The notes below the pieces were generated by a model. The model saw only the letters and a list, made by a program, of their open reading frames with translations, was not told the origin of the DNA and did no database searches. From the NCBI GenBank assembly GCA_049514315.1, contig JBEKVD010000003.1, positions 6,049-70,048 on the forward strand: 64,000 bases of DNA. The letters run 5' to 3'. Both the position numbers and the translations under genes were made by a program. The stretch is from Candidatus Limnocylindrales bacterium. Lineage in GTDB: Bacteria; Chloroflexota; Limnocylindria; Limnocylindrales; CSP1-4. This document shows positions 10,740 through 31,353 of this stretch, piece by piece. The number at the start of each line of letters is the position of its first letter. The first letter of the stretch is position 1.

Positions 10740-11944
10740 CTATCGAGCGACGCCCTCGGATGAGCGCATCCTGAGGACCACCTCGTCGTAGATGGTCTCG
10801 ATCGAGTTCACCATCAACTCGACGCAGAAGCGGTCGTGGACCATGTCGTGGCCGCGTTTGGCGATCATGTCGGCAAATGGATGGTCGGCCAGCAACCGTT
10901 CGATGGCGCCCGCCAGCGCCTCGCGGTCGTCCGGCGCCACGAGCAACCCGCTGACTTCGTCCTCGATCATCTCGGGGATGCCGCCAACCCGGGACGCGAC
11001 CACCGGCCGGCCCAGCGCCATCGCTTCCAGAACGCTGAGGCCCTGGGCCTCGCGGTAAGACGGCAGCACGGACACGTCGAGGGCGGCCGTGACCGCAGGG
11101 ACGTCCTCGCGGCGGCCCGTGAACACGACCCGATCCGAGATGCCCAGCGACGCCGCCTGGGCTTCCAGAGAGTTTCGTTCCGAGCCCTCCCCGACGATGA
11201 GCAGCCATGCCCGCGGCTGCGCCGCCAGGACGAGCGGCCACGCCTCCAGGAGGGTGCGATGGCCTTTCTCCGGCTCCAGTCGGGCCACGACGCCGACGAT
11301 CTGGGCATCCTCGGGAATGGAGTAGTCCTCGTGCAGGGTGCAGCAGGGCTGCTGGTGGTTGTAGCGCTCCAGGTCCACTCCGTTGTAGATCAGGCTGACC
11401 GGTACGCCCCGACGGCCTTCTTCGCGGATCTTCTGCTCGATCGCCTTTGAAACAACGATCAAGCGGTCCATGAGAGGCGTCAGCTGGTTCAGGTTCCTCC
11501 GATCGTCGACGCATCGAACACGGCTCGAATGGACGGTGGAGATGATGGCCGGCCGTCTCAAGCCCTCTTCTCCGAGCACCAGGGCGGCTTTCGTGCCGAC
11601 AATCTCGGCCCGATACATGTGGTTGTGAACGACCTCCGGCCGGAACGGGGAGAGCAGTTCGGCCAGCGCTCGGACGCTTTCGCGATCATCGGGCTCGTCG
11701 ACCACCGAAACATCGACGCCGGCCCTCTGGAGGCGGCGAACGCTGCTGCCATGCGAGAGTGAGATCACCCGGACGTCGTAGCGATCGCGGTCGAGACGGG
11801 TTACGAGGGAGTACACGTGTTCCTGCGCGCCACCGTTGGTTCCGGTGGCCATGATCTCGACGACCCTGATTCGGCCACCCTCGATCGGCTCGCGGTCGAT
11901 CAGCTCGACGCAAGGATCGGCGTCGCCGAGGTCAGCGCCCATCG
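10740..11944 (-). CDS. Glycosyltransferase family 4 (GT-B, GT1/RfaG-like)
   Basis: GGAQEHVYSLV N-terminal motif. C-terminal E-x7-E region SYREAQGLSVLEAMALGRPVVASRVGGIPEMIEDEVSGLL. Start set at ATG 11942-11944, which overlaps the stop of the upstream gene; the longer 12209 ORF prefix is Ser/Thr/Arg junk. Confidence 0.85.
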
Positions 11945-13086
11945 CCGGAACCCCCCAGCACGGGGCCGATTCGCTGGACGAGGAGGCGCTCGATCGGCGA
12001 ATCGACGGCGCCCCACTCGTACTTGTACGGCTCGTCGCCGCGCAGGAAATCGACGCGGGCCCGCCCGAGCTCGATCGCCCGCTTGACGTAGCAGGCGGCC
12101 AGGAGCACTCCGGGCGATAGCTCTCGAGCCTCCGGCTCGGTGCCCGCGTTGTAGTAGTAGAGGGCGTCGCCGTCGTCGAACGTGACTCCGGCCGCGATGC
12201 GACGGCCACCGACGGTCAGGAAGCTGAGATCGACCAGGCCGGCGGCCGCGCAGCTCTCGAAGAGCCCGCCGAAGAACCGCCGGCTGGCGGCTCCGCCGTC
12301 GGTCGGCGGGAACAGCCCCTCCGCGCCCCAGCGTTTCTGGTGCAGATCCACGAAGGCGTCCAGATCGTCGATCGGGCTCTTCGAGCTTTCGAGGCCGACC
12401 GCGCCCGCCGCCTCAGCTCGACGAACCTTGCGCCGGATCTCATGGCGCTCCTTCTTGCCCAGGGTGGCGAGGAAGCCGTCGAAGTCGAGCCCAGGCGCAA
12501 GCGTCACCACCGGGCAGACATCTTCCTGCTCCCGAGTGACGGCCCAGCCGGCCTTCGGCGCCGCCCGTTCCAGGGCCCCTGCGAGTTCATCTGTGGCGCG
12601 GTCGCCGTGGCGGAGACGTCGCAGGTCCAGAACATCCCAGCGGCCCGGATCCTGGGCCGCCAGCGCCTCGACGACAGCCTCGCACACGCCGCGGAGGTCC
12701 TCGGGGGCGGCCAGAATAGTGGCGTAGTCGGCGTGGTACGACGCCCCGAAGAACACTGCGGTCGCCGAATCGGGCACGGGCCGGAGAGTCGAACCGGACT
12801 GGTGTCGGATGGTCGTCCTGGCCGCCAGGTCCCCCGGCTCGAGCTCGTGGCGGTGCATGAGCGGCGCGATACCGACGATGTTGTCGGGGCCGGCCCCGTT
12901 CACCACGATCAGCGTCTGGTCGTGGGCGGTCGCTCCATACGCCTCCCACCACGCCCTCTGGACGCAGTGGCGCGAGAACGGTGTCGCCCACGGTGTCCGA
13001 TCGGCGAGCGAGTTCCACGTTTCGTTCGGTATGGAATCGAATGGTCGGCGGCTCGCCGTAAGGCGCGAGCCGGTCGCGGTGCTCAT
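11932..13086 (-). CDS. CelD/BcsL-like GNAT-fold acyltransferase (FemAB-like, Acetyltransf_6)
   Basis: Pattern FLATLGKKERHEIRRKVRRAE ... YYYNAGTEPEARELSPGVLL ... VDFLRGDEPYKYEWGA is typical of the cellulose-biosynthesis CelD-like acetyltransferase family. Assigned from memory of the family. Confidence 0.65.
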   Translation of the reverse strand: MSTATGSRLTASRRPFDSIPNETWNSLADRTPWATPFSRHCVQRAWWEAYGATAHDQTLIVVNGAGPDNIVGIAPLMHRHELEPGDLAARTTIRHQSGSTLRPVPDSATAVFFGASYHADYATILAAPEDLRGVCEAVVEALAAQDPGRWDVLDLRRLRHGDRATDELAGALERAAPKAGWAVTREQEDVCPVVTLAPGLDFDGFLATLGKKERHEIRRKVRRAEAAGAVGLESSKSPIDDLDAFVDLHQKRWGAEGLFPPTDGGAASRRFFGGLFESCAAAGLVDLSFLTVGGRRIAAGVTFDDGDALYYYNAGTEPEARELSPGVLLAACYVKRAIELGRARVDFLRGDEPYKYEWGAVDSPIERLLVQRIGPVLGGSGDGR

Positions 13087-13276
13087 GGGAAACCCGCCGG
13101 TGCGGACGGCGACCGTCCGTTCTGACTGTAGGCCACTGGAGTCTTGAGACGGGCAGGCTCACCATCTGGCGCAGAGGGAGCTCTCACGGACCGAGCATAG
13201 CACCACGCTCGGAACCAGCCTGCGGTCGAGCGGTCGCTCTATCGGACGCGCCTATGCCCGGCCAGAACCCCAGCGG

Positions 13277-14428
13277 CTATGCCGCCCCCAATCCCCCGAC
13301 CGGCAGACCTGGATTCGGCCTCAGCGCGCGTGTTACGCGGTCCTCGCGAAGAGCCTCAACCAGCAGCATCGCCAGGACGGCGACGAATACCAGCGGGACG
13401 CTCGCCGACGCCGGCCAGGCGCCGCCCGAGTCGAAGAGCGAAATCCAGCCGAGTATCGGAAAGACGGCCGCCCATTTCCGGCCCGTCTCCAGGAACCAGG
13501 CCGTCGGAAGAAGCAGCAGCATCGCGTAGTGGTCCCACAACAGCGGCGTCACCAGCTGGCTCGCCACGATGGTGCCCATCAATCCGACTTCTGCCCCTCC
13601 GAAGCGCCAGATCAGGAGGACGACCACGGCCACCGCTGCGGTCGAGACCAGCTGCCCGGCCTCCGCTGCCACCTCCGGCAGACCGGCCTGATACAGGACG
13701 GCACCAGGCGAGCAATTGTGCGGCGTCGCCGCCGCCGACGAGATCCGCGCAAGGAGCGTCACGTAATCAGACCACGCACCGATGCCCGTGAAGACGGTCG
13801 CGACCGCGGCCGCCGCCGCGACGACCCCAAGGGCGATGCCGACGGCGCGCCACCGGCCCGTGACCCCAGCCCAAGCAACGAGGAGCGCCGGCTGGACCTT
13901 CACCAGCGCTCCCAGGGCAGTGGAGGCGCCGAGCGAGATCGGCCGATCGCGCCATCGCCAGGCCACCGCGAACAACACGAAGAGCAGGGGCCCGACCTGG
14001 CCAAGCTTGACCGAATACAGGAACGGCCAGTTCAGGGCACCGAGCACCACGACAAGCCAGCGAACGTCGCGTCGTACCGGCAACAATGCAGCGCCCAGCG
14101 GGAGACACAGGGCCATCCCTATGACCCACACGCCGCGGGCCACGGCGTCAGGCAGTAGCGTCAGCGGCGCCACAGCCAGGGCGAAGGGCGGCGGGTACAG
14201 GTAGATCGCGAATCCGCCGGCGGCCGAAACGGACGGGTCATACAGCTGCCCGCCGTTGATGAGGCGGCGGGCCGCTCCAACGTAAGCCTCGAAGTCGTAG
14301 CCCAGGGTGTTGCCGGCAGAACCCAGGACCAGAGCAAGCATGACGGCGAGCAGCAACAGCGAGCCGATTGGCACGATTGCGTCGGCCGGCCGCGCGCGGG
14401 GTCTCGCCGGTGAAGCGGCGGCGGTCAT
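13277..14428 (-). CDS. Polytopic GT-C glycosyltransferase, GT87/DUF2029-like
   Basis: About 11 TM segments. N-terminal loop GYDFEAYVGAARRLINGGQLYDP...YLYPPPFALAVAPL resembles DUF2029 (mycobacterial alpha-mannosyltransferase family). Confidence 0.7.
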   Translation of the reverse strand: MTAAASPARPRARPADAIVPIGSLLLLAVMLALVLGSAGNTLGYDFEAYVGAARRLINGGQLYDPSVSAAGGFAIYLYPPPFALAVAPLTLLPDAVARGVWVIGMALCLPLGAALLPVRRDVRWLVVVLGALNWPFLYSVKLGQVGPLLFVLFAVAWRWRDRPISLGASTALGALVKVQPALLVAWAGVTGRWRAVGIALGVVAAAAAVATVFTGIGAWSDYVTLLARISSAAATPHNCSPGAVLYQAGLPEVAAEAGQLVSTAAVAVVVLLIWRFGGAEVGLMGTIVASQLVTPLLWDHYAMLLLLPTAWFLETGRKWAAVFPILGWISLFDSGGAWPASASVPLVFVAVLAMLLVEALREDRVTRALRPNPGLPVGGLGAA

Positions 14429-15306
14429 GACCCGGGCGTTTCCTCGGACGCGCCGTCGGATGCGAGCCGCTCGGCGGTCGATCGCCCGGCCGCCGGATCC
14501 GAAGCGGCCGAGTCGGTTGCAGGCGCCTCGTCAGCCGCCTTTCGCACGCCCCGATGGACGAATCGAATCCGAACCAGGTCCCAGACGACCTGCAACGCCA
14601 GCTTTGGACGAGCATGCATACGCGACCCACGCCGGTCGGCCCAGGCCACCGGGACGATGGCGATGCGATAGCCGCGCCGCCGAGCCAGGTAGATCAGGTC
14701 GACGTCGAACACGATGCTCCTGATACGGAGCCGGCCGAACAGATCACGCGCCACCGAGGCGCGAAAGCCCTTGAAACCGCACTGCGTATCCCTCACCGGC
14801 CCCGTGACCCATGCCTGGGCTGCGAGGCGGAAGAGCCGCCCGACGAATCTCCGGAACGGCGGCTGGCTGGCCCGCATGTCCGACCCGTCCGGCTGGATGC
14901 GGCTGCCGAGAGCGACATCCGCGGACTCGAGCGCGGCGACCAGCAGTGGTATCTGGTCCGGCGGGGTGGCCATGTCGGCATCGGCGAAGACGAGCACGTC
15001 GCCCTCGGCAACGAGCATTCCGGCCCGCACGGCCGAGCCCTTGCCGCCATGACTCACCGACAACAGCCCGAGCGATGGACAGCCGCGCCTCGCTGAATCC
15101 GTGCCGTCGACCGCGAACTCCGGCCTCGCCTTCACCAGAGCGGCGGTTCCATCGGTGCTGCCGTCGTCGACCACGAGCACATTCACCGTCGCGGGGAGAA
15201 CCCCCTCTGGCGCCGAGCACAGGTGGGCGAACAGCTCGTCCAGCGCGGGCCCCAGGCGAGCCTCCTCGTTGTAGGCGGGCAGAACGATTCCCAGGCTGGA
15301 AATCAT
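14425..15306 (-). CDS. GT2 polyprenyl-phosphate glycosyltransferase (Ppm1/GtrB/dolichyl-phosphate glucosyltransferase-like)
   Basis: MISSLGIVLPAYNEE, VLVVDDGSTDGT and VFADADMATPP (DXD) motifs. An alternative GTG start at 15342 would add 12 aa. The stop overlaps the GT87 start. Confidence 0.85.
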   Translation of the reverse strand: MISSLGIVLPAYNEEARLGPALDELFAHLCSAPEGVLPATVNVLVVDDGSTDGTAALVKARPEFAVDGTDSARRGCPSLGLLSVSHGGKGSAVRAGMLVAEGDVLVFADADMATPPDQIPLLVAALESADVALGSRIQPDGSDMRASQPPFRRFVGRLFRLAAQAWVTGPVRDTQCGFKGFRASVARDLFGRLRIRSIVFDVDLIYLARRRGYRIAIVPVAWADRRGSRMHARPKLALQVVWDLVRIRFVHRGVRKAADEAPATDSAASDPAAGRSTAERLASDGASEETPGS

Positions 15307-15438
15307 GACCGGGAGTGTACGGTCAGCGCCGGCCCGCCGCACCGGCGCTGCGCGCAGGCCAGCATTGAGCAGGCCCGGGTCCTATGTCGAGAGCTGTCGA
15401 GGATAGGCCGTTCGTACCAGTGGAGTGGGACCCGGCCG

Positions 15439-17136
15439 ATGCTACGCTGCGATGCCGTGCGGACCTGCATCGCTCTGTATGCGCTTGCCCTCGCCGTTCG
15501 AGCGGTCGTATTTGGCCTGCATCCCGACGCGGCCTATCCCGATGCGTACTACTACGTCGAAGTAGCCCGGGCTCTCCACGCCGGGCAGGGCTTCAACATC
15601 GATTTCATCTGGTCGTTCGTGGACGTAGGCGGTCGAATCCCTGCCCTCCCGACTCTACCGATCCCGAGCAACGCCCACTGGATGCCGCTGGCCTCGATCG
15701 TGCAGCTGCCGACGATGTGGCTCCTGGGACCCACGCCAGTTGCTTCTGTGATCCCGTTTGCCATCGTCGGTTCCCTGTCGGCGCCCATGACCTGGCTTCT
15801 TGCCCGCGAAATGGGCTGTTCGCCTCGCGTGGCCCTGCTGGCCGGCATCACGGTGGCCGTGCCAGCAGCCGCGACCATCTACATGGCCCAGCCCGACAAC
15901 CTTGCGCTCTACCAGCCGCTGGGCATGGCTGCGCTCTGGCTGACCGCGCGCGGTTTGAAAGGCCACCGCTGGTCCTATGCGCTGGCCGGTCTGATGGTCG
16001 GTCTGGCCACGCTGGCTCGAAACGATGGGGTGCTGCTCGGCGCCGTCGTCGGACTCGCTCTTGTGTGGGATCGATGGCGCGCCTGGCGATCCAATGCCGG
16101 TCGAAAGCCGGCGATTCCATGGCGTTACGCGTTTGGCTGCTTCGGCCTTTTCCTGCTCGTGGTTGCGCCCTGGTACGCGCGCCAGCTGATCGTCTTCGGC
16201 AGCATCTCGCCGTCGACCACCTCCGGCCGGATCCTGTTCATCCGCACGATCGAACAGATGGACAGCGTCACCGCCCAGACGACGCTTGCGAGTTTCCTTG
16301 GCCAGGGGATCGGGCCGCTGCTCCAGAGCCGCGTGCTTGGTCTGGTTTCGGCGCTGCAGATCTACTTTGTGATCGCGAGCCCGATCGTGCTTGCGCCGTT
16401 CGTCCTGATTGGCGGCTGGGCGCGCCGGCGATCGGTCGATTTCGGGCCCTTCTTTGCCTACGCGGCAGTCCTCTTCGCCGCCTCCGCCCTCATCTTCGCG
16501 GTGCACGTTCCGTACGGCACCTTCCTGCATTCGGCCGTGGCCCTGGTGCCGTTCACATTCATCCTGACCCTGGAGGGAGTGGTCCAGGCTTCTAGCTGGG
16601 CCGCTCGTCACCGCCGGACCTGGACCGAGGAGGGCGCCACGCGCCTCTTCCTCGCACTGGCCGTGGCTGCCGTCCTGGTCAACGCCGCCGTCTACGCGGC
16701 CGTCGCCATGCCGGCCTGGAACGCGGAGCGCGACGATCGATTGGCCGCCGGCGGGGCTCTGAACGCAGCGGGTGCACCCAACACCGACCTGCTCATGAGC
16801 GCCGACCCGGGCGGGTTTGAGTACTTTACCGGCCATGGAGGCGTCGTCACGCCGACCGACTCGCTCGAGGTTATCCACCAGGTCGCCGTCGACTACCACA
16901 TTCGCTGGCTGATACTGGAGAGGGCACACGTGGTCGAATCCATGATCCCCGTGCTCGAGTTGACGGAACGGCCGGCATGGATCGGCCTGCCGATCTTCAA
17001 CGTGCCCTACGAGGGGCCTAAGACCGGGAACCCGACCGTCGACGGCGCCCCCGCCCTGGCGATCTACCCGATCTGCATCACGGCAGGGGACACGCGCTGC
17101 GGGCCGGCCGCGAGCAGCGCTGGGGCAGCGCCATGA
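15439..17136 (+). CDS. GT-C glycosyltransferase, ArnT/PMT (GT39/GT83)-like, paralog A
   Basis: Multi-TM protein. First periplasmic loop YPDAYYYVEVARALHAGQGF carries the D-x-x-Y type motif of PMT_2/ArnT enzymes. ATG 15439 chosen because the 15223 prefix lacks membrane character. Confidence 0.7.
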   Translation: MLRCDAVRTCIALYALALAVRAVVFGLHPDAAYPDAYYYVEVARALHAGQGFNIDFIWSFVDVGGRIPALPTLPIPSNAHWMPLASIVQLPTMWLLGPTPVASVIPFAIVGSLSAPMTWLLAREMGCSPRVALLAGITVAVPAAATIYMAQPDNLALYQPLGMAALWLTARGLKGHRWSYALAGLMVGLATLARNDGVLLGAVVGLALVWDRWRAWRSNAGRKPAIPWRYAFGCFGLFLLVVAPWYARQLIVFGSISPSTTSGRILFIRTIEQMDSVTAQTTLASFLGQGIGPLLQSRVLGLVSALQIYFVIASPIVLAPFVLIGGWARRRSVDFGPFFAYAAVLFAASALIFAVHVPYGTFLHSAVALVPFTFILTLEGVVQASSWAARHRRTWTEEGATRLFLALAVAAVLVNAAVYAAVAMPAWNAERDDRLAAGGALNAAGAPNTDLLMSADPGGFEYFTGHGGVVTPTDSLEVIHQVAVDYHIRWLILERAHVVESMIPVLELTERPAWIGLPIFNVPYEGPKTGNPTVDGAPALAIYPICITAGDTRCGPAASSAGAAP

Positions 17137-18833
17137 GCCGGCGCGAGACGTGGCTCAGCGCGGGCGCCATATTCGTGCTGGCGCTCGCGGTCAGAGCCGT
17201 GGCCGCAGCCGCAGTCACCTTCCCGGTACCCGAGGACACGGCTTACTACGACAGCGTAGCTCGCAACCTCCTCGAGGGCCGTGGCCTGATCAGCGACGCG
17301 CTGTGGAGCTACCAGACACAGCCGCTGGTCGTGCCACGAGCCGCGTTCGAAGTCTGGCTGCCGTTGCCGTCGCTGCTGGCTGCGATACCGATGGCCGCCG
17401 TAGGGGTCGGGAACTGGTTCCGCGCTGCGCAGGTCATGTCCGTGCTGGCAAGCTCCTGCGTGGCAGTCCTGGCCTGGCGCCTGGGCGCCGACCTGGCTGC
17501 CGAGATGCAACTGCCGGTCGGGCGTGCACGAACCATGGGCCTCGGCACCGGTCTGGTCGCGGCGGTCTTCGGGCCCCTCGTGCTGTACGGAACCCTCCCC
17601 GATTCCACGGCCTTGTTCACTGTGCTGTCGCTGGCCGCGTGCCTGCTGATGACCCGAATCGCAGCCCGCGCGGCCGCCAGGGACCCCGATGCCACCGGAA
17701 ACGGGGCCTCAACCGTCGGGCTGGCCGCCGCCGTTTCCGCTCAAATCGATAGCCGGCTCGTCGTCCTTGGAGCGTTGCTTGGTCTTGCCGCGCTGACCCG
17801 AAGCGAGGCGATCTGGCTGGCACTCGCCTGGGCAGTCCTGGCCTGGTTCTGGACACCCGGCAGTCGCCGACGCCGCCTCGGCCTGATCGCAGTGCCCGCA
17901 GTCGTGGCCGGGCTGGTCTTCGCTCCGTGGGCCATTCGCGATTGGCTGGTCTTCGGGTCGCCGCTGCCCGGCCAGACGCTGGCCAACGCCCTGTCCGTCC
18001 ACAGCTACGACATCTTCGCCTACCAGGACGTGCCCAGCCTGGCCCGCTACCTGGCCCAGGGTCCGGTGGCTCTCGTCGGCGCACGCCTGGTCGGACTTGC
18101 GCACGACCTCTTCACCGTTCTGCTGATACCGGCCTTCCCGGTGGGCCCGCTGGGGCTGCTGGTCCTGCCCTGGGTCGGTCGTCGCCGGACCCTTCGACCG
18201 CTGGTGCTCGTTTCCATCTGCACATTCGTGGTAACCAGCCTCCTCTTCCCGGTGTCCACCCTTTCAGGCACCTACATCCACGCGGCAGGATCGGCCGTCG
18301 TGCTGTTGACGGTGTGCTGCATGGCAGCCCTCGACTCGTTCATCGACCGGGTCGGCAGGCTCCGCGGCTGGACTCAGCCGGTGGCCTGGCTCGGGCCAGC
18401 GTTCGCAGTCGTTGCGGTCGGACCGTTGTGCGTTGTGACTATCACGGCCATCGCCGGCTTCGCGGGGGGCGTCGACGCCCGTTATGAGGCTTTGCCAGCC
18501 GCCATGGCCAGGGCAGGCGTGCCTCTCGACGGTAAGGCCCCGGTCATCGCCGACTACCCGATCTGGCTGGCGGAGTCGGCCCGGATTCCGACGCTGGCGC
18601 TGCCGCAGGAGTCGCCCGCCGCCGTTCTCGATCTCGCCCGGCGCTTCGGCGCGAAGCTGGTCGTCGTCTACGTCGACCCCGACGTCGGCGGCGTCTGGCC
18701 CGATATCCTGAACGGGGGCGGAACGGCAGCGAGGTGTTTCCAGGATGTCCCGCTCACCGACGCGTCGGGGGCGATGCCGGGCCCCGGCTCGGATCTGGCA
18801 GGAATCACAGTCTTCCGGATCGTTTGCCCATGA
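17133..18833 (+). CDS. GT-C glycosyltransferase, ArnT/PMT-like, paralog B
   Basis: Same layout as paralog A: FPVPEDTAYYDSVARNLLEGRGL first loop, about 12 TM segments and a C-terminal soluble domain. ATGA overlap with paralog A. Confidence 0.65.
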   Translation: MSRRETWLSAGAIFVLALAVRAVAAAAVTFPVPEDTAYYDSVARNLLEGRGLISDALWSYQTQPLVVPRAAFEVWLPLPSLLAAIPMAAVGVGNWFRAAQVMSVLASSCVAVLAWRLGADLAAEMQLPVGRARTMGLGTGLVAAVFGPLVLYGTLPDSTALFTVLSLAACLLMTRIAARAAARDPDATGNGASTVGLAAAVSAQIDSRLVVLGALLGLAALTRSEAIWLALAWAVLAWFWTPGSRRRRLGLIAVPAVVAGLVFAPWAIRDWLVFGSPLPGQTLANALSVHSYDIFAYQDVPSLARYLAQGPVALVGARLVGLAHDLFTVLLIPAFPVGPLGLLVLPWVGRRRTLRPLVLVSICTFVVTSLLFPVSTLSGTYIHAAGSAVVLLTVCCMAALDSFIDRVGRLRGWTQPVAWLGPAFAVVAVGPLCVVTITAIAGFAGGVDARYEALPAAMARAGVPLDGKAPVIADYPIWLAESARIPTLALPQESPAAVLDLARRFGAKLVVVYVDPDVGGVWPDILNGGGTAARCFQDVPLTDASGAMPGPGSDLAGITVFRIVCP

Positions 18834-19942
18834 GAGACGGCTCGTATACTCCAATCGGTATGGACGCTACCCGCGGCGCCGGAGAATTCCGCGACTCGCA
18901 CTTCGACGAGTTGTACGCCGAAGCTAAAGCCACGCTGGTCTACGGAGCCAACAATCTCCGCTCCATCACCGAGCGCTATCGCGAGGCCTACCACGACACG
19001 CTGGGCCGGTGGCATCGCCTGCGCGACGAGCTCCTGGCGGCCGACCGCCCCACTCTCTCGATGGTCGACGGGACCGATGCGGCCGCCGCCGCTGAGGCCG
19101 GTGCAGAAGATGCCCGCCAGCGGGCTCTCCGGTCTGAAGTCGAGCGGCTCGCTGCGGACGTTGGTCGCCAGCAGCAGGAGCTCTCGAAGCTCGAGCTCGC
19201 GGTTCGGAGCATGGAGAACGCCTGGCTGTTCCTCGAGCGCGGCGATGCCAGTCTGCTCGCCGGGGGCGGCGGGGTCGAGCTCGCCACCGACATGCAGATG
19301 CGCATCGTCGAGGCCCAGGAGGCCGAACGCCTGCGCCTGGCCCAGGAAGTCCACGACGGGCCGGCCCAGGCGTTGTCGAACGCCATCTTCCAGGTCGACT
19401 ACGTCGAGCGGATGCTCAACGAGGACGTGCGAACGGCGGCCAGCGAACTTCGGTTCCTGCGCGAGCTCCTTCGCCGGGAGCTGGGCGAGGTCCGGACCTT
19501 CATCAGCCAGCTCCGTCCGCCGTTGATCGACGAGCTGGGCCTCGATGGCTCGATCATGGACGCCGTGGAGAGCATGGCCGGCCTTACGGGCGCCACGGTC
19601 GAGGCGGATCTCAAGGCTCCGGGAGACGGATTGGTGCCCGCGCAACAGACCGCGGTGCTGCGGATCGTCCAGGAAGCGTTGCAGAACGTCCGAAAACACG
19701 CAGGCTCCAGTCGGGCCGTCGTGTCGACACGACTCGAGTCCGCGAACTACGTTGTCGAAGTGGCGGACGACGGACGCGGCTTCGACGTCAATGCGATCGC
19801 CGCTCGCGGTCGACGCAACTTCGGTCTCCAGTTCATGCGGGAGCGAGCCGAGTTCATCGGTGCCCAGTTCGACGTTCGGTCCAGACCTGGCGGGGGTACG
19901 GTCGTCAGGCTATCGATTCCATTCGGAGAGGAGAGCGCATGA
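18830..19942 (+). CDS. Cytoplasmic DegS-like sensor histidine kinase (HisKA_3 + HATPase_c)
   Basis: No TM segments. Coiled-coil N-terminus. H-box RLAQEVHDGPAQAL. N-box QEALQNVRKHA. G1 DDGRGF. G2-like GLQFMRERAEFIGAQFDVRSRPGGGT. ATGA overlap with the upstream GT-C gene. Confidence 0.85.
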   Translation: MRDGSYTPIGMDATRGAGEFRDSHFDELYAEAKATLVYGANNLRSITERYREAYHDTLGRWHRLRDELLAADRPTLSMVDGTDAAAAAEAGAEDARQRALRSEVERLAADVGRQQQELSKLELAVRSMENAWLFLERGDASLLAGGGGVELATDMQMRIVEAQEAERLRLAQEVHDGPAQALSNAIFQVDYVERMLNEDVRTAASELRFLRELLRRELGEVRTFISQLRPPLIDELGLDGSIMDAVESMAGLTGATVEADLKAPGDGLVPAQQTAVLRIVQEALQNVRKHAGSSRAVVSTRLESANYVVEVADDGRGFDVNAIAARGRRNFGLQFMRERAEFIGAQFDVRSRPGGGTVVRLSIPFGEESA

Positions 19943-20682
19943 GTTCGATGGAGTACACCGGGCCGGAGCGGCGCCGACCAGGTACGGGCGGCCGGGCAGC
20001 GGAGAAAACCACGATCCTGCTGGTCGACGACCACGCCCTGTTTCGTCTCGGGATGCGCGACATCCTCGAGCGGGAGCCCGCCTTCGAGATCGTCGGTGAG
20101 GCCGAAGACACGCGCGGCGCTTTCGACCTCTCCGTCCAGTTCTCACCCGACATCATATTGATGGATCTGTCACTGCCAGCTCCCGGCGGCATCGACGCAA
20201 CCCAGCGGATCAAGCGAGAACTGCCGTCGGCTGGGATCATCGTTCTTGCCGTCGACGAGGACGAGGACGCCCTGTTCGATGCCATCAAGGCCGGAGCGGC
20301 GGCGTTCATTCTCAAGGACGTGGCGCCGGACGACCTGGTCGCGATCATCCGCCGCGTGGCGGCAGGTGAATACCTGATCAACGACAAGGTCTTTGCGAAG
20401 CCGGCGGTGGCGAGCCGCGTCCTCAAGGAGTTTCGCGAGCTGGCGATCTACGGCCAGGAAGCGACTCCCATCTTTGCTCCGCTGTCGCCTCGCGAGGTCG
20501 AGATCCTGGACAATATCGCCCAGGGCATGACCAACAAGCAGGTGGCTTACGCCCTCTCCATCAGCGAGCAGACCGTCAAGAATCATATGTCCAGCATCCT
20601 TCGCAAACTGAGCGTCAACGATCGGACGCAGGCCGTCGTCTACGCGATGCGCCAGGGCTGGATTCGCATGCCCGAGGATTGA
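19939..20682 (+). CDS. NarL/DegU-family response regulator (REC + LuxR HTH)
   Basis: ILLVDDH..., IILMDLSLP (phospho-acceptor Asp) and C-terminal LSPREVEILDNIAQGMTNKQVAYALSISEQTVKNHMSSILRKL. ATGA overlap with the kinase. Confidence 0.9.
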   Translation: MSSMEYTGPERRRPGTGGRAAEKTTILLVDDHALFRLGMRDILEREPAFEIVGEAEDTRGAFDLSVQFSPDIILMDLSLPAPGGIDATQRIKRELPSAGIIVLAVDEDEDALFDAIKAGAAAFILKDVAPDDLVAIIRRVAAGEYLINDKVFAKPAVASRVLKEFRELAIYGQEATPIFAPLSPREVEILDNIAQGMTNKQVAYALSISEQTVKNHMSSILRKLSVNDRTQAVVYAMRQGWIRMPED

Positions 20683-20689
20683 GCCGCCC

Positions 20690-21853
20690 GTGGCCATCGA
20701 ACCGGGACCGCTGCCGTTGCTCGAAATCGCGGAGCGCGCAAGGCGCGAAATCGATCTGCTGACAAGGGAGATCGACGACCTCGAGGTGCTCGTGAGCCAG
20801 GCCCGGACTGAGGCCGACCATCACGAGCGGAAGCGCGCCCAGGCGGAGCAGGAGCAGGCGACCGCGGGCAAGGTGCCCGGAGGCGAGCGGGGCGATCAGC
20901 TCGTCGCCCTGACAAAGAGTTCGGTCATCATGGCGGCGCAGGTCGACATCCTCGAAGGCAAGCTCAAGGTCCTGACCCGGTTTCGAGAGAGCCTGCGCCG
21001 CTACAGCAGCGAGCTCGATCACGCTTCAATGGGAGGCGTTGTTCCGGAGGCCGTGCCGGACAGGCTCGACATGAGCGCGCCGCTCCTCCCGCCGGCCGTC
21101 TCGCGGCTCGTGCTGGCAGCCCAGGAGGACTTGCGTCGCGAGATCGCCCGGGCCATGCACGATGGCCCAGCCCAGAACCTGACCAACATCGTCCTCGAGG
21201 CGCAAATCGTGGAGCGGCTGCTGGACCGCGACCCGGCTGCGGCCAGGGCCGAGATCGGGCAGCTCGTGGAAATGGTTCAGCACACCCTGGAAGCTACCAA
21301 GACCTTCATCTTCGATGTCAGGCCGATGGTCCTGGACGACCTGGGGCTGGTTCCCACGCTGAGGCGAGTTGCACGGGACCGCGGGCGGCGATCCCATATC
21401 CCGATCGAGTTCGAGTCCTACGGGCCGGATCGGCGCCTGCCGCTCGACATCGAAAGCGCTCTCTTCCGGCTGATCGACGCGACGGTCACCGGCTTCCTGT
21501 CATGCCATCCGGATCGGATCTCGATCCGCGTTGAATGGGCCTCGGACAGGACGGAGGCCTGCATCGCGGCCAGGCGCAGGCAAGCCGAGGATCTGAAGGA
21601 GCCGGAGGGCGAAAACGCCGTGCCTGCCTTCACGCGGGGCACGGCCGTCGAAGGCGACATGCCTGAGGCGCTCAAAGCCATGATCAAAGACACGGACGCG
21701 GCTGCGATCGCGCGAGCGGAAGGGGCCAATCAACTGCTGGCCCTGCCGCCCAACACGTGGCGCGACATCCAGCAACGGGCCGCCACAATTGGCGCAACGG
21801 CCGAGATGGCTGATGAAGGCCGGGAAGTGATCCTGGTCCTGCCAGCGAGTTGA
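20690..21853 (+). CDS. DegS-like paralog with intact H-box but degenerate ATP-binding domain (pseudo-kinase or phosphotransfer protein)
   Basis: The H-box REIARAMHDGPAQNL and X-region are conserved. In the C-terminal half I cannot find the N-box Asn, G1 (DxGxG) or G2 (GxGL) motifs. GTG start 7 nt after the RR stop. Confidence 0.7.
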   Translation: MAIEPGPLPLLEIAERARREIDLLTREIDDLEVLVSQARTEADHHERKRAQAEQEQATAGKVPGGERGDQLVALTKSSVIMAAQVDILEGKLKVLTRFRESLRRYSSELDHASMGGVVPEAVPDRLDMSAPLLPPAVSRLVLAAQEDLRREIARAMHDGPAQNLTNIVLEAQIVERLLDRDPAAARAEIGQLVEMVQHTLEATKTFIFDVRPMVLDDLGLVPTLRRVARDRGRRSHIPIEFESYGPDRRLPLDIESALFRLIDATVTGFLSCHPDRISIRVEWASDRTEACIAARRRQAEDLKEPEGENAVPAFTRGTAVEGDMPEALKAMIKDTDAAAIARAEGANQLLALPPNTWRDIQQRAATIGATAEMADEGREVILVLPAS

Positions 21854-22065
21854 CCCGGGGGCAGGCGCCATCGCGTCGGACCGGCGTGCACGCGGGCAGA
21901 CCGGGCGCCGTTCGTGGATCCCTGCAAGCTCCCGGCGAGATCGGTCAGGGCCTCATCGAATACGGCCTCATCCTGCTTCTCATGTCCGTGGTTTGCTTCG
22001 TCTCGCTGGTGTTCTTTGGGGATCAACTGTCATCGCTGCTCAGCCTGATCGCCTCGGCGGTCTGA
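21850..22065 (+). CDS. flp: Flp/Fap-family type IVb pilin (Flp-1), long leader
   Basis: Flp motif EIG|QGLIEYGLILLLMSVV followed by a hydrophobic helix and a short C-terminus. TTG 21850 overlaps the upstream stop (TTGA). An in-frame GTG at 21886 is an alternative start. Confidence 0.7.
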   Translation: MTRGQAPSRRTGVHAGRPGAVRGSLQAPGEIGQGLIEYGLILLLMSVVCFVSLVFFGDQLSSLLSLIASAV

Positions 22066-22273
22066 GGCCCCCGCGGGCCGGGGCTCGATGGCCACGACCA
22101 CACCGACGCACGGGTGACACTCAGATGAACGCCGAACTGTCGGATCTGGCGAAGTGTGGGGGGCATACTTCCGGGTCCTGCCATTACTAACGGGCTATTG
22201 GCCCCCTGGGGGGCGGCAACCAGAATAAACGCTACCCCTCCCATTAGAGGACGCCCTTATCTGGAGGCCATTG

Positions 22274-22447
22274 ATGCTCGCGTTGATGCTCGCTCGGTTG
22301 CCGTTGCTCTCGCGGTCCGAGAAGGGCCAGGGTCTGGCTGAGTATGCCCTGATCCTTGCCCTCATTGCTGTCGTCGCTATTGCGGCGCTCATCTTCCTTG
22401 GCGGCAAAGTCTCGACGATCCTCAGCACAGTCGGCACCTCGATTTAA
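22274..22447 (+). CDS. flp: Flp/Fap-family type IVb pilin (Flp-2), 57 aa, absent from the supplied ORF track
   Basis: My translation is MLALMLARLPLLSRSEKGQGLAEYALILALIAVVAIAALIFLGGKVSTILSTVGTSI*. Canonical Flp motif G/QGLAEYALI. GGAGG lies 6 nt upstream of ATG 22274. A perfect terminator follows. Confidence 0.85.
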   Translation: MLALMLARLPLLSRSEKGQGLAEYALILALIAVVAIAALIFLGGKVSTILSTVGTSI

Positions 22448-22461
22448 CCGACCAGCTGAAC

Positions 22462-22498
22462 AAAAAGCGGGCCGCGCTCGGTGCGCGGCCCGCTTTTT
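22462..22498 (+). terminator. Rho-independent terminator after flp-2
   Basis: Perfect 16-nt inverted repeat AAAAAGCGGGCCGCGC / GCGCGGCCCGCTTTTT with a 5-nt loop (TCGGT). GC-rich stem plus T-tract. Confidence 0.75.
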
Positions 22499-22605
22499 GT
22501 GCCCCGGGAACCGAGTCCGACCAGTTTCACCACCAGACCCGAGAATCCTTCCTAGTACGAGTAGCCCATTCGTATAGTCCTCGTAAGGTCGACAACAAGG
22601 TTACC

Positions 22606-23601
22606 TTGATGATGCCTGTCAAACGCGTTTGGAGTGTCGTCGTGAAACGGTCCAGTCGATTGATAGTCCTGCTCGGGGTCGTCCTGGCCATCGCCGGCGG
22701 CGTCGCCGCGATCGTGCTGGCAAACGGAGCCGGTAGCAACGGCGGCATCCCGGCGCCCTCGCCGACAGCCACGCCTGAGCCGACGGTCACGGTCGTCGTC
22801 GCCAAAGTTGACATCAACCTGGGCGATACGATCACAACGAGCATGGTCGGCGTTCAGACCATGACGGTCTCCCAGCGCGACGCACTGGGTCAAGACACCT
22901 TCTCGAGCGTCGACCAAGTCATCGGCAAGATCGCCGGTGGGCAGATCACGTCCGGGCAGGTCCTGATGCCCAGTCGGGACATTCTCAGTCCGGGGTCCAT
23001 GACCGATGGCACGGACATATCCGGCGCGATCTCGCCTGGCATGGTCGCCGTGTCCGTGGAAGTCGACCAGACGAACGGCGTAGGCACGCTCATCGTGCCG
23101 GGTGATCACGTCGACATAATCCTCAGCGTTTACACGGATCAGATCGCCATCTCGGGCAAAAATGCCTCCGGCAACATTATCCCCCTCACCGGCGGGCAGC
23201 AGGTCACCAGCAAGATTGTGATCCAGAATCGCAGGATCCTCGCGACGCTTCTGCAGCCGTCCGCTGCAGTCCCCACGGCCGCGCCGGTCGCCAACGCGAC
23301 CGCCGCGGCCCCCGCCCCAACCTCGGCGATCGTGCAGTTCACAGAACGCACCATGATCGCGATCGTGGAGGTCACCCCCGACGAAGCCGAGATCATCCGG
23401 TGGGCCCAACGCGCGGAGACGGAGGGTACGCAAAACTACATCGACCTCGCCTTTGCCCTGCGCTCGACCAAGGACAACTCGGCGCCGCCGGTGGTCACCC
23501 CGGGCATCACCTTCAAGATGCTGGTCGACAAGTACGGCGTGCTTCCGCCGGATCCGCGAGGCATCCTGCCCGCAGACCTGGCCCAGGGAATCCAGTGGTA
23601 G
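22606..23601 (+). CDS. cpaB: Flp pilus assembly protein CpaB/RcpC
   Basis: N-terminal TM anchor (RLIVLLGVVLAIAGGVAAIVLA). SAF-like VVVAKVDINLGDTITTSMV. Position immediately after flp. Confidence 0.8.
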   Translation: MMMPVKRVWSVVVKRSSRLIVLLGVVLAIAGGVAAIVLANGAGSNGGIPAPSPTATPEPTVTVVVAKVDINLGDTITTSMVGVQTMTVSQRDALGQDTFSSVDQVIGKIAGGQITSGQVLMPSRDILSPGSMTDGTDISGAISPGMVAVSVEVDQTNGVGTLIVPGDHVDIILSVYTDQIAISGKNASGNIIPLTGGQQVTSKIVIQNRRILATLLQPSAAVPTAAPVANATAAAPAPTSAIVQFTERTMIAIVEVTPDEAEIIRWAQRAETEGTQNYIDLAFALRSTKDNSAPPVVTPGITFKMLVDKYGVLPPDPRGILPADLAQGIQW

Positions 23602-23684: not shown

Positions 23685-24914
23685 ATGACTGACCGGATCC
23701 AGGTTCTGATCGTCGATGACATCCCGGAGACGCGGGACCACCTCACGAGACTGCTCGGGTTCGAGTCCGATATCCAGGTGATCGGGACGGCCTCATCGGG
23801 CGCGAACGCGATCGAGAAGGCGACCACGCTTCTGCCGGATGTCATCCTCATGGACATCAACATGCCCGACATGGATGGAATCGCGGCAACCGAGCGTCTG
23901 TCCGCCCAGGTCCCGACCGCAGCCGTGGTGATGATGTCGGTCCAGGGCGAAGCCGACTACCTGCGCCGCTCGATGCTTGCCGGGGCCCGCGAGTTCCTCG
24001 TCAAGCCCTTCAGCAGCGATGAATTGACGGCCTCGATTCGTCAGGTCTATGCGCGCGAGAAGGAGAAAGGCCGGCGGGCGGTCATCGCGGAGGCCGCGCG
24101 AACCCAGGACACGACTCGGGATGGCCAGGTCGTGGCCGTCTTTAGCCCGAAGGGCGGGGTCGGCAGAACCACCATTGCCGTCAACCTGGCCGTGGCCGCC
24201 TCCGAGCTGGGCAAGAAAGTAACCCTCATCGACGCGTCGCTCCAGTTCGGTGACGTGGCCGTCCTCGTGAACCTGAACCCAAGTGACAAATCCATAGCTA
24301 ACCTGCTCCCCGAGCTCGAGCAGGGACTTGATCCAGAGGCGGTCGAGGCGGCCACCCTCATCCATTCGTCGGGCACGAGAGTCCTGCTCTCCCCGCCTTC
24401 GCCGGAGATGGCCGAACTCATCACCCCCGCCGGCGTGAAGAACGTTGTCGAGATCCTCCGCCAGCGCAGCGAGCTCGTGGTGGTCGATTGCGCGGCTTGG
24501 TTCAACGACACACTCCTTGGCATCCTGGACCGGGCCGACGTACTACTGACCGTGCTCACCCTGGAGATCACGAGCATCAAGAGCACACGGCTGTTTCTGG
24601 CAGTCGCCGAGCAGCTCGGCTATTCACACAAGGTCCGTTTGGTCCTGAACCGCGCCGACACGGCCCTGGGGATCAGGGTGGCCGATGTCGAGCACTCGAT
24701 TGGCCGCAAGGTCGACCACGCAATCGTGAGCGACGGACGGACCGTCGTGTATGCGCTGAACCGCGGCGTCCCATTCGTGCTCAGCAACCGAGAGAGCCAG
24801 GTATCTCAGGACGTTCTTCGTCTGGCCAAGTCCATCATCGGAGGACCAAAAGTGCGCGAAGAGAACGGCCGTAAGGCGCCCCAGAAGAGCAAGTCGCTCT
24901 TCGCGTGGAGATGA
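23685..24914 (+). CDS. cpaE: CpaE/TadZ-type ParA/MinD ATPase fused to a canonical receiver (REC) domain
   Basis: REC: VLIVDDIPETR, DVILMDINMPDMDG, and K in LVKPF. ATPase: deviant Walker A VFSPKGGVGRTTIAVNLA. Confidence 0.85.
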   Translation: MTDRIQVLIVDDIPETRDHLTRLLGFESDIQVIGTASSGANAIEKATTLLPDVILMDINMPDMDGIAATERLSAQVPTAAVVMMSVQGEADYLRRSMLAGAREFLVKPFSSDELTASIRQVYAREKEKGRRAVIAEAARTQDTTRDGQVVAVFSPKGGVGRTTIAVNLAVAASELGKKVTLIDASLQFGDVAVLVNLNPSDKSIANLLPELEQGLDPEAVEAATLIHSSGTRVLLSPPSPEMAELITPAGVKNVVEILRQRSELVVVDCAAWFNDTLLGILDRADVLLTVLTLEITSIKSTRLFLAVAEQLGYSHKVRLVLNRADTALGIRVADVEHSIGRKVDHAIVSDGRTVVYALNRGVPFVLSNRESQVSQDVLRLAKSIIGGPKVREENGRKAPQKSKSLFAWR

Positions 24915-24946: not shown

Positions 24947-26311
24947 ATGTCCCTTATGAAGCGGATCGAAAGCGCCCGACCGGGCGTGGCCCCGGGCGTT
25001 CCTGGCGGGATCCCCGGCCCCGCCGAGCAGCGCATCCTGGGCCAGATTCCCGTGCGCGAATCCCTGCGTGAGGTCAAGTTCCGGGTTCAGTCGCGCGTCA
25101 TCCAGGACCTGGACCCCAAGCTCGATCTGGCCAACCAGATCGAGGTCCGGCGCCAGATCGAAGAGATCTTCTCGCGAGTGGTGGACGAGGAGAGCCTGGC
25201 ACTCACGCGTGCCGAGCGACTCCGGATGCTCGAGCAGATCACCGACGAGATCATCGGCCTCGGCCCCCTCGAGCCCCTTCTCCGCGACGACACCGTGACC
25301 GAAATCATGGTCAACGGCCCACGCCAGGTGTACATCGAGCGCAACGGCCGCCTCGAGCTGACCAACGTCGTCTTCCAGAACGACGACCACGTGATGCGCA
25401 TCATCGATCGGATCATCGCCCCGATCGGCCGGCGCATCGATGAGTCGAGCCCGATGGTCGACGCCCGCCTGACGGACGGTTCACGCGTCAACGCGATCAT
25501 CCCGCCCTTGTCCTTGGTCGGGCCGGTCGTCACGGTCCGGAAGTTTTCGGCGTCGCCGTTCACGGTTGACGACCTGATTCGCTTCGGCACGGCCACGCCC
25601 GAGATGTTCGACTTTCTGCGGGCTTGCGTTGAAGCTCGTCTGAACATCTTCGTGTCGGGAGGCACGGGGTCGGGCAAGACCACGACCCTCAACGTCCTCT
25701 CGTCGTTCATCCCGAATGACGAACGCATCATCACCGTCGAGGATGCCGCCGAACTCCAGCTCCGCCAGGAGCATGTGGTCACGCTCGAGTCGCGGCAGCC
25801 GAACATCGAAGGTCACGGAGCCGTCCCGATCCGCGAACTGGTACGCAACTGCCTGCGAATGCGTCCTGACCGGATCATTGTCGGCGAGTGCCGGGGAGGC
25901 GAAGCCCTGGACATGCTCCAGGCAATGAACACCGGCCATGACGGCTCGATGTCCACCGGCCACGCCAACAGCCCGCGCGACATGTTGTCCCGCCTCGAGA
26001 CGATGGTCCTCATGGCCGGCGTCGACCTGCCGCTACGGGCCATCCGCGAGCAAGTCTCGGCTGCCGTCGACCTCATCGTGCATCAGTCCCGACTCAAGGA
26101 CGGCTCGCGGCGGATCCAGTACATCACCGAAGTCCAGGGAATGGAGGGCGACATCATCGTGATGCAGGACGTCTTCCTGTTCGAGCAGACCGGCGTGATC
26201 GAAGGCAAGATCCAGGGCCGCCTGCGGGCAACGGGGATTCGGCCCAAGTTCGTCGAGAAGTTCGAGGTCATGGGCATCCACCTGCCCGCCGGCCTGTTTG
26301 GCTTCGCTTAG
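24947..26311 (+). CDS. cpaF: Tad/Flp pilus secretion ATPase CpaF/TadA
   Basis: Walker [17 protein letters not shown]. Asp box [12 protein letters not shown]. Walker [14 protein letters not shown]. His box [13 protein letters not shown]. Confidence 0.93.
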
Positions 26312-26331: not shown

Positions 26332-27348
26332 ATGTTGGGGATCGTCGTCGGGACTCTCGTCTTCAGCGGGATACTGCTGCTATTCCTGGGTGTCGCCAGC
26401 GCGAGCCGGGGCGGCGGCATCAACGCTCGACTCGAGCGGTACGCCAGCAGCAAGGTGGAGCCGACGGCGGTGGCGACCCCGACGAAGGAGTCCGCCGGAC
26501 TCGGCGGCGTGCTGGCCGGGAGCGTGACCCTCGCGCGCCTGAACCGGCTGGTGGAGCGCAGGGACTTCGGCACCAACCTCGCCCGCGACATCGCTCGCGC
26601 GGACCTGAAGCTCCGGACGAGCGAGTTTCTGGTCATCTGGCTCGCCACCATTCTGGCTGTGCCCCTTGTGTTCGCGGTACTCGGCCTCGTCCTGTCACCG
26701 CTCGGCACGCCGATCGCACTCTTGATTGGCGCCGTCATCGGTTTCTTCCTCCCCCGAATGTGGTTGGGACGCCGCAGGTCCTCGCGTCTGAACGCGTTCA
26801 ACAAGCAGCTCCCCGACACCATCACGCTTATCGCCAACGCATTGCGAGCAGGGTCGTCGTTCATGCAGGCGATCGAGATGGTGGTCCGTGAGTCGACTCC
26901 GCCGGTGACCGTCGAATTCGGGCGGGTTGTCCGCGAGGTCAATCTCGGCCTCGCCTTCGAGATGGCCCTCGACAACATGGTCCGCCGCGTCCGATCGGAC
27001 GACCTCGAACTGATGGCGACTGCGATAAACATCCAGCACCAGGTCGGCGGCAACCTCGCTGAGATCCTCGACTCGATCGCCTTTACTATTCGAGAGCGCG
27101 TTCGGATCAAGAGCGAGATTCGGATCCTGACCGCCCAGCAGCGACTGTCCGGCTTTGTCGTGGCTGGGATGCCGATCGGCCTGGCAGCTCTCCTGACCGT
27201 GATTGCCCCGGGATTCATGCAGCCGATGTTCGACAACCCACCCGGCATCATCGGCCTGCCTGCCGGCGTGATCCTCCTGGCCATCGGTGGCCTCTCGATG
27301 TTCACGGGGTTCATCCTCATCAGGCGCATCGTCGCCATCGAGGTCTGA
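26332..27348 (+). CDS. tadB: Tad pilus inner-membrane platform protein TadB
   Basis: T2SF-like domain (QLPDTITLIANALRAGSSFMQAIE) with terminal TM segments. Position after cpaF. Confidence 0.85.
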   Translation: MLGIVVGTLVFSGILLLFLGVASASRGGGINARLERYASSKVEPTAVATPTKESAGLGGVLAGSVTLARLNRLVERRDFGTNLARDIARADLKLRTSEFLVIWLATILAVPLVFAVLGLVLSPLGTPIALLIGAVIGFFLPRMWLGRRRSSRLNAFNKQLPDTITLIANALRAGSSFMQAIEMVVRESTPPVTVEFGRVVREVNLGLAFEMALDNMVRRVRSDDLELMATAINIQHQVGGNLAEILDSIAFTIRERVRIKSEIRILTAQQRLSGFVVAGMPIGLAALLTVIAPGFMQPMFDNPPGIIGLPAGVILLAIGGLSMFTGFILIRRIVAIEV

Positions 27349-31346: not shown

Positions 31347-31353
31347 CGATGTC

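Follow-up and report, generated by a model that had tools for sequence, protein, structure and literature searches.

Here, we describe the head of a Tad pilus locus in a 64,000-nucleotide stretch of Candidatus Limnocylindrales bacterium (class Limnocylindria, Chloroflexota; contig JBEKVD010000003.1 of assembly GCA_049514315.1), which has 68% G+C and is called the window below. Six genes follow one another at positions 15439–22065 and encode two glycosyltransferases of the GT-C type (GT-C A and GT-C B), a histidine kinase (HK), a response regulator (RR), a pseudo-kinase paralogous to HK (PK) and an Flp-family prepilin (flp1). A second pilin gene, flp2, and the genes cpaB to tadC lie downstream. 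This gene order and its overlapping stop and start codons are retained, as read from the assembled sequences, in at least 75 species, and the genes from GT-C A to flp1 are read as one coupled operon. The genes are as follows.

15439–17136, + strand: GT-C A, PMT_2/ArnT-like polytopic glycosyltransferase (Pfam, hydrophobic segments, D35)
17133–18833, + strand: GT-C B, GT-C-fold paralog of GT-C A (hhalign, Foldseek, FPxPEDTAYY motif)
18830–19942, + strand: HK, soluble DegS-like histidine kinase (Pfam HisKA_3 + HATPase_c)
19939–20682, + strand: RR, NarL/DegU-type response regulator (Pfam REC + GerE)
20690–21853, + strand: PK, pseudo-kinase, predicted phosphatase-only partner (Pfam HisKA_3 only; BLASTP against HK)
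21850–22065, + strand: flp1, divergent Flp-family prepilin (TTGA overlap; G|QGLIEY cleavage motif)
22274–22447, + strand: flp2, probable major Flp pilin (G|QGLAEYALIL motif)
22606–23601, + strand: cpaB/rcpC (Pfam RcpC)
23685–24914, + strand: tadZ/cpaE with REC (Pfam REC + AAA_31)
24947–26311, + strand: cpaF/tadA (Pfam T2SSE)
26332–27348, + strand: tadB (Pfam T2SSF)
27352–28281, + strand: tadC (Pfam T2SSF)

Direct reading of the sequence gives ATGA at the GT-C A/GT-C B (17133–17136), GT-C B/HK (18830–18833) and HK/RR (19939–19942) junctions, a 7-nt spacer, GCCGCCC, between RR and PK (20683–20689), and TTGA at the PK/flp1 junction (21850–21853). All five had been listed in a first-pass annotation made from the letters, and each was verified in the sequence. 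A is rare at the third codon positions of these genes (8%). Hence, three ATGA junctions in a row are not expected by chance (~0.08^3) and are not an effect of composition. The GT-C A start at 15439 is backed by a conserved N-terminus, MxRC, and there is no alternative in-frame start nearby. Pfam bears out the domain labels first given to GT-C A (PMT_2/PMT), HK (HisKA_3 and HATPase_c), RR (REC and GerE) and PK (HisKA_3), and both of the proposed Flp-like open reading frames (ORFs) are found, with C-termini DQLSSLLSLIASAV and KVSTILSTVGTSI.

To place the arrangement in a wider context, a GT-C B profile was used to collect 80 loci, each from a distinct GTDB species and with a GT-C B that is 50–78% identical to the window protein. 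The relatives are the best-scoring matches and all fall within the class Limnocylindria; all surveyed genomes are metagenome-assembled genomes (MAGs). Gene presence is given relative to the loci with enough flank. Wherever the flank suffices the order is constant: GT-C A, GT-C B, HK, RR, PK, flp (1–5 copies), cpaB, tadZ, cpaF, tadB and tadC. GT-C B is accompanied by HK in 71/71 loci, RR in 63/63, PK in 58/59 and flp in 57/57, and downstream by CpaB in 52/55, TadZ in 55/55 and CpaF in 53/53. The gene immediately 5' of GT-C B is GT-C A in 66 of 73 species. Approximately 80% of species retain the 4-nt overlaps (A/B, 49/59 loci; B/HK, 54/71; HK/RR, 56/67). Between RR and PK, 24 of 61 loci have the 7-nt spacer, and in the others the gap is mostly <50 nt. 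RR itself is 78–93% identical over the class. The co-occurrence is thus not unique to this genome, a possibility raised in the first-pass annotation, given that order and overlaps recur class-wide. The claim of a single translationally coupled unit made there is borne out, at the level of predicted coupling, by this retention of the gene order and of the overlaps themselves.

Starting from the pilin motif, a metagenome scan gave more loci with the full arrangement, down to 43–49% identity (L176), and pilin-seeded loci with Limnocylindria-like tad genes also have PK, RR, HK and GT-C genes upstream. This second survey is confounded by the presence of the motif in other lineages and in orphan genes. 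One divergent tad locus (L164; TadE, TadG-like, CpaB, UvrB, flp, TadZ and CpaF) has neither GT-Cs nor regulators, and the arrangement is lineage-specific rather than general to Tad loci with similar pilins. Orphan Flp genes with GQGLAEYALIL also occur beside MetRS, TatD and an ABC ATPase, distant from tad genes (L110 and L115). In one MAG, MFD02416.bin.1.50, two contigs (L065 and L066) each carry a complete arrangement with near-identical proteins, through either duplication or strain redundancy in the bin.

GT-C A scores above the Pfam cut-offs for both PMT_2 (35.4 bits) and PMT (26.9 bits), the PMT match being partial (profile positions 90–231 of 245). GT-C B has no Pfam match, nor do 16 of its close relatives, and distant relatives have weak PMT_2 matches. 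The two are nevertheless full-length paralogs (BLASTP E 1e-9; hhalign 99.7%, E 6e-26, 456 columns) with approximately 11 (A) and 13 (B) hydrophobic segments, in the typical GT-C range of roughly 8–13 transmembrane (TM) helices. An AlphaFold2 model of GT-C B is a helical bundle that agrees with the segment count, at a predicted local distance difference test score (pLDDT) of 55, and its top 13 PDB matches in Foldseek are all GT-C enzymes (STT3/AglB, AftA, DPY19, ALG12, ArnT (5ezm) and AftB), with E 2e-5 to 4e-3 and a TM-score of ~0.4 from this low-confidence model. Both enzymes have a conserved acidic site after TM1, YPD35AYYY in GT-C A (D35 at least 90% conserved) and PE34D35TAYY in GT-C B (FPxPEDTAYY motif at least 95% conserved), and the two sites align to each other in hhalign. 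The essential acidic residue of protein O-mannosyltransferases (PMTs) and most GT-C enzymes sits in the first outer loop after TM1 (PMC12331936). The GT-C B family is small, with 239 clusters at E ≤ 1e-30 among 1.84 billion representatives.

The GT-C identity first proposed for both proteins is therefore upheld, for A by the PMT_2/PMT match, for B by paralogy and Foldseek, and for both by the conserved Asp35. The accompanying label, PMT/ArnT-like, is justified as far as an ArnT/PMT_2-like GT-C is meant; as a PMT-type protein O-mannosyltransferase it is not, given that Pfam finds the PMT_4TMC module in neither enzyme, that B has no PMT match and that PDB sequence and profile searches with A and B returned only noise, with no match to any solved PMT. 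The PMT_2 label denotes a whole family, in which GT-Cs that act on lipids or polymers, ArnT among them, are also included. Together with the lack of PMT_4TMC, this means that 'PMT-type' need not imply a protein acceptor.

GT-C A is absent from three loci (L029, L031 and L039), reduced to remnants or internally deleted in three (L032, L017 and L040) and present in two copies in one (L055), whereas GT-C B, HK, RR, PK and flp1 are intact in these loci. Hence, GT-C B is the core partner of the regulators. A 1,093-aa protein (P0187) that resembled an A–B fusion, and so a Rosetta-stone case for an A/B complex, was rejected as a frameshifted gene call because its matched parts are split by out-of-frame-like stretches. 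A third PMT_2-like GT-C gene lies at 31285–33123, 3 kb past tadC, with a PMT_2 score (24 bits) just under the cut-off; it was dropped as a member of the unit, being only remote kin of GT-C A and GT-C B (hhalign 50%).

HK matches Pfam HisKA_3 and HATPase_c and has conserved H, N, G1 and G2 boxes, and RR combines REC and GerE. PK is paralogous to HK through the dimerisation domain (BLASTP E 2e-15), with the alignment ending ahead of the N-box. It keeps the H-DxxxQ motif (HDGPAQ at least 95% conserved), lacks the N, G1 and G2 boxes and has a poorly conserved C-terminal region. From work on NarX, the phosphatase activity of HisKA_3 kinases is known to depend on the DxxxQ that adjoins the His. With this motif kept and no ATP-binding boxes, PK is predicted to be phosphatase-only, and HK and PK probably form a kinase/phosphatase pair acting on one NarL-type regulator. 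Neither HK nor PK has a hydrophobic segment or a recognisable sensor domain. The DegS/DegU-like architecture and the pseudo-kinase label of the first-pass annotation agree with Pfam, with the conservation of the boxes, with the HK/PK comparison and with the lack of hydrophobic segments; orthology with DegS/DegU does not follow, given that NCBIfam points to MctS and NarL as the nearest families, with every score far under its cut-off. TadZ/CpaE (23685–24914) carries an N-terminal REC domain (E 1.4e-27), a second potential phosphorylation target in the locus.

The two pilins have the cleavage motifs G|QGLIEYGLIL (flp1) and G|QGLAEYALIL (flp2) and mature parts of 39 aa each. Both are under the Flp_Fap cut-off of 32.2 bits (flp1, 17.5; flp2, 24.9), which is often the case for short proteins. 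flp1 starts at a TTG overlapping the PK stop and has no Shine-Dalgarno sequence of its own. An in-frame NTGA start overlapping the PK stop is found in 32 of 54 loci, and in 18 of them it is the sole canonical start before the cleavage Gly; in 45 of 54 loci a start is available within −4 to +15 nt of the PK stop. The flp1 leader of 15–49 residues is not conserved, whereas the 39-residue mature part is. The flp2 type is more uniform than flp1 and occurs in 1–5 tandem copies in relatives. The following non-coding features accompany the genes.

15402–15438, + strand: conserved block GATAGGYCGTTCGTACC..GGAGTGGGACC, candidate operon leader or regulatory site, abutting the GT-C A start (conservation in 17 close relatives)
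22181–22226, + strand: inverted repeat and promoter-like hexamers, candidate RR site and flp2 promoter (conservation)
22237–22250, + strand: 5' untranslated region (5'UTR) hairpin CCUC-N-GAGG before the flp2 Shine-Dalgarno sequence (alignment)
22460–22500, + strand: strong intrinsic terminator behind flp2 (RNA folding)

Upstream of flp2, an inverted repeat, CCAYTA-N9-TARTGG (22181–22201), overlaps a −35-like TTGGCC, which is followed after 17 nt by a −10-like CAGAAT. The repeat is unique in the window (0.02 expected by chance), and an exact copy is found at the same place in 17 loci. It is a candidate binding site for the GerE-type response regulator, with the hexamers forming a promoter-like block for flp2, and by this reading the flp2 promoter is the likely target of RR. 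No further copy of the repeat precedes GT-C A or cpaB, and control of the whole locus through one shared site therefore lacks support. The 5'UTR hairpin precedes the Shine-Dalgarno sequence GGAGG (22263–22267), its 5' arm is anti-Shine-Dalgarno-like, and in the alignment its arms seem to change together in distant relatives, e.g. CCTCGATCGAGG and CCTCACCTGAGG. It may control translation of the major pilin. Behind flp2, folding gives a terminator with an 18-bp stem (−37.8 kcal/mol, z −6.7) followed by UUUUU, and no terminator behind flp1 in the window. Across the survey, terminator-like sites lie behind 30 of 128 flp2 genes compared with 1 of 54 flp1 genes. A generic promoter and terminator scan returned one promoter-like site, on the wrong strand, and missed the flp2 terminator seen by direct folding. 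Ahead of the operon, the 37-nt block at 15402–15438 is conserved in 17 close relatives, whereas the rest of the region between the divergent upstream GT2 gene and GT-C A is not; Rfam gave no match in the leaders, this block included.

From these features, flp2 is probably a separately transcribed major pilin and flp1 probably a divergent, minor one, possibly made at a low level with the regulators and having a priming role. The coupling of the GT-Cs to pilin production claimed in the first-pass annotation holds in part: flp1 is in the chain, but the chain ends there, and flp2 has its own promoter-like block and terminator.

Directly upstream, a divergent cluster on the − strand (10740–15342) encodes, by Pfam, GT4, Acetyltransf_6 (FemAB-like), GT87 and GT2 proteins, of which the two nearest to GT-C A are listed here.

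13277–14428, − strand: GT87-family GT-C glycosyltransferase of the divergent upstream glycan cluster (Pfam GT87, E 3.8e-23)
14425–15342, − strand: GT2 glycosyltransferase, candidate polyprenyl-phosphate-sugar synthase, divergent from GT-C A (Pfam Glycos_transf_2, E 1.6e-21)

The best NCBIfam resemblances of the GT2 protein are to ArnC and dolichyl-P-hexose transferase, far below the cut-offs (ArnC, 46 bits against 529). Within 10 kb upstream of GT-C B, GT2 is found in 39 and GT87 in 30 of 55 species. In distant relatives the cluster has one or two GT87 genes, sulfatase/LtaS-like genes or Wzy_C; one locus (L058, 3492–6799) has two sulfatase/LtaS-like membrane proteins with GT87, and another (L046, 3747–5396) a protein of the Wzy_C family, which includes O-antigen ligases and PglL/PilO-type O-oligosaccharyltransferases. 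The content therefore varies and has been repeatedly reshuffled over the span of the survey, yet it is always glycan-related.

Among the ORFs scanned across the 64-kb window there is no Peptidase_A24 prepilin peptidase, secretin or TadE/F/G; the peptidase may lie elsewhere in the genome. ArnA/B/D-like genes, DprE1/E2-type genes and a GtrA-type flippase were likewise not seen among the window ORFs. Directly past tadC (28772–30241) lie a ComF-type phosphoribosyltransferase with a double zinc ribbon and a ribosome hibernation factor, and the ComF homolog beside a Tad locus may hint at DNA uptake. Elsewhere the window carries genes usual for a core chromosome (DnaB, MreB, MurA, the ATP synthase operon, RF1, RodA and PBP2), and the locus is not on a mobile element.

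The explanation we favour, and to which we give an even chance, is that the six genes are the conserved head of the Tad locus of Limnocylindria, which are monoderm-type Chloroflexota, and form one coupled operon that co-expresses an extracytoplasmic glycosylation step and a switch for the pilus genes. The divergent GT2 would load a hexose onto polyprenyl phosphate and, after flipping, the GT-C A/B pair would pass this sugar on to an acceptor at the outward-facing side of the membrane, perhaps cooperating as yeast Pmt1–Pmt2 do. HK would phosphorylate and PK dephosphorylate RR in a push-pull manner. Once phosphorylated, RR would bind at the flp2 promoter, through the inverted repeat, and probably also at its own operon. 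Glycosylation of the envelope or pilus and both pilins, the minor (flp1) and the major, would then be switched together.

Several observations weigh against this explanation. The promoter and the regulator site are drawn from conservation, and the generic promoter scan lent them no support. Sampling MAGs of a single class means that part of the synteny could reflect inheritance rather than selection, and seeding on GT-C B introduces an ascertainment bias that the pilin-seeded scan corrects only partly. The GT-C B model is of low confidence. Several lineages have no GT-C A or only a truncated one, which precludes a strict A/B heterodimer as a general rule. Furthermore, the GT2 and GT87 genes are linked more loosely to GT-C B than are the regulators and tad genes, which weakens an envelope glycan as the acceptor.

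As to the acceptor itself, an envelope glycoconjugate made together with the neighbouring GT87/GT2/GT4 cluster is in our view plausible if short of an even chance and slightly above a pilus protein, which taken over both of its forms we consider a reasonable minority possibility. The first of these forms is that GT-C A and GT-C B are dedicated Flp-pilin O-glycosyltransferases that transfer a polyprenyl-phosphate sugar to Ser/Thr of the C-terminal tail at the outer face of the membrane before assembly, in the manner of TfpW. GT-C B is linked to flp and tad in every sufficiently flanked locus, flp1 is in the same coupled chain, the inferred topology puts the pilin tail at the membrane surface near the GT-C active sites, and the Ser positions of the flp2 tail (QVSxILSTVGNS) are highly conserved. 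The Ser/Thr-rich tails, first taken as a sign of glycosylation, are weaker evidence than they seemed, given that they look ordinary for small Flp pilins and that the i/i+4 spacing is compatible with the packing of helices. A comparable tail is found in PilA of Caulobacter. There is precedent on both sides: TfpW is a GT-C acting on a type IV pilin (bioRxiv 10.1101/2020.04.19.049825) and Flp1 of Aggregatibacter is reported to be glycosylated (PMC6182317), but the Caulobacter Tad pilus shows no glycan density (PMC10710030). Loss of tail Ser does not track loss of GT-C A: Ser is lost in L029 and L031 but not in L039, L032 and L017, and it is lost in L015 with GT-C A kept. Of the GT39 PMT features looked for, the PMT_4TMC module is missing from both enzymes and a PMT match from GT-C B; flp2, the probable major pilin, is probably transcribed separately; and the divergent GT2/GT87/GT4/acyltransferase cluster directly upstream offers a non-pilin role. 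On balance, we consider glycosylation of the Flp tails rather unlikely. The second form, in which the sugar goes to CpaB, we regard as improbable. CpaB/RcpC has low-complexity linkers rich in P/T/S/A (residues ~216–240 in the window protein), P/T/S-rich linkers are present in every ortholog, and the richest 25-aa stretch has a median of 48% P+T+S over 55 orthologs. Such a linker is the kind of segment that is glycosylated by actinobacterial PMTs.

GT-C B, whether catalytic or not, could instead provide the membrane input of a kinase that has none, by relaying the occupancy of lipid-linked sugar or acceptor to HK and PK as in UhpC–UhpB or BceAB–BceS. Transporter-like co-sensors are established for HisKA_3 kinases (UhpB/UhpC). 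HK and PK lack transmembrane and recognisable sensor domains, the B/HK overlap is among the best kept, GT-C B is never found without HK, and GT-C A can be lost while GT-C B remains. On the other hand, the strict conservation of its catalytic-type motif indicates that GT-C B is at least also an enzyme, and soluble DegS-type kinases function without membrane partners, which leaves this role a long shot. Equally doubtful, to our mind, is the absence of any functional link, with an envelope glycosylation cluster and a regulator–tad cluster fused once in the class ancestor and kept by descent. All of the examples are from a single class, the two GT-Cs are similar in kind to the upstream glycan genes, and the other type of tad locus (L164) does without both GT-Cs and regulators. 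However, order and 4-nt overlaps persist to ~45–50% protein identity, a span over which the upstream cluster has been reshuffled repeatedly. Under neutral synteny, the GT-C/kinase junction should have broken up as well. A combined version, in which the GT-C pair is a pilus-dedicated O-glycosylation module for Flp tails or CpaB and GT-C B also acts as co-sensor of pilin or lipid-linked sugar supply, we consider unlikely.

The locus resembles the Tad/Flp (type IVc) loci of Caulobacter (cpa) and Aggregatibacter (tad) in its G/XXXXEY prepilins and in having CpaB/RcpC, TadZ/CpaE, CpaF/TadA and TadB/TadC in the usual order. It differs from both in the missing secretin and TadE/F/G in the cluster, in the missing prepilin peptidase among the window ORFs, and in the preceding coupled GT-C pair, two-component system, pseudo-kinase and second, divergent Flp type. 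The first-pass annotation knew of no described Tad locus organised this way, and a literature search likewise found none headed by GT-C genes and a two-component system; the search found nothing on Limnocylindria pili.

Among glycosylation systems, TfpW/TfpX of Pseudomonas aeruginosa group IV pilins share a membrane GT-C gene near a type IV pilin gene, and TfpW uses a polyprenyl-phosphate sugar at the outer face. However, the substrate of TfpW is a type IVa pilin that has a globular domain, the tfpW gene immediately follows pilA without intervening regulators, and TfpW depends on D-arabinofuranose donor genes (DprE1/E2), which are missing from the window ORFs. The GT-C genes here share the operon of flp1 and lie 3.4 kb ahead of flp2. 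Actinobacterial GT39 PMT with Ppm1 shares the GT-C fold with an acidic residue in the first outer loop, and the PMT uses a GT2-made lipid-phosphate sugar (PMC12331936); GT-C A passes the PMT and PMT_2 cut-offs. In contrast to that system, the locus has no PMT_4TMC, a B without a PMT match, and two paralogs with regulators rather than a single housekeeping enzyme. The three-component systems ArnT/ArnC, GtrB/GtrC-like and CsbB/YfhO also place a PMT_2-type GT-C beside an ArnC/DPM-like GT2, but in the window there are no Arn pathway genes and no GtrA-type flippase is seen. In yeast Pmt1–Pmt2 there are likewise two paralogous GT-C enzymes; here their genes overlap, favouring equal dosage, and GT-C A is dispensable in some lineages.

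On the regulatory side, DegS–DegU of Bacillus subtilis shares the soluble HisKA_3 kinase with a coiled-coil N-terminus and the REC–GerE regulator, and DegU governs surface behaviours. The system here is not orthologous to it and has in PK an extra conserved paralog without ATP boxes. Each component of the locus belongs to a family already described; what is new, and class-wide, is the way in which they are combined and strictly coupled.

Few bacterial adhesion organelles are as widespread as Tad pili, but very little is known of their regulation and post-translational modification in monoderm and uncultured lineages. The locus described here is a class-wide genetic link between lipid-linked-sugar glycosyltransferases, a pair of kinase and predicted phosphatase-only proteins, and pilin genes, and it names specific targets: D35 in both enzymes, the DNA site at 22181–22201 and the two pilin types. 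If the pilins or CpaB are the acceptors, the missing enzyme class for Flp glycosylation would be identified, and with a pilus-dedicated module this would be the first Tad system to have glycosylation built into its genetic layout. With an envelope glycan as acceptor, wall remodelling in Limnocylindria would be coordinated with the making of pili. Both results would help to explain how an abundant soil and freshwater clade attaches to surfaces.

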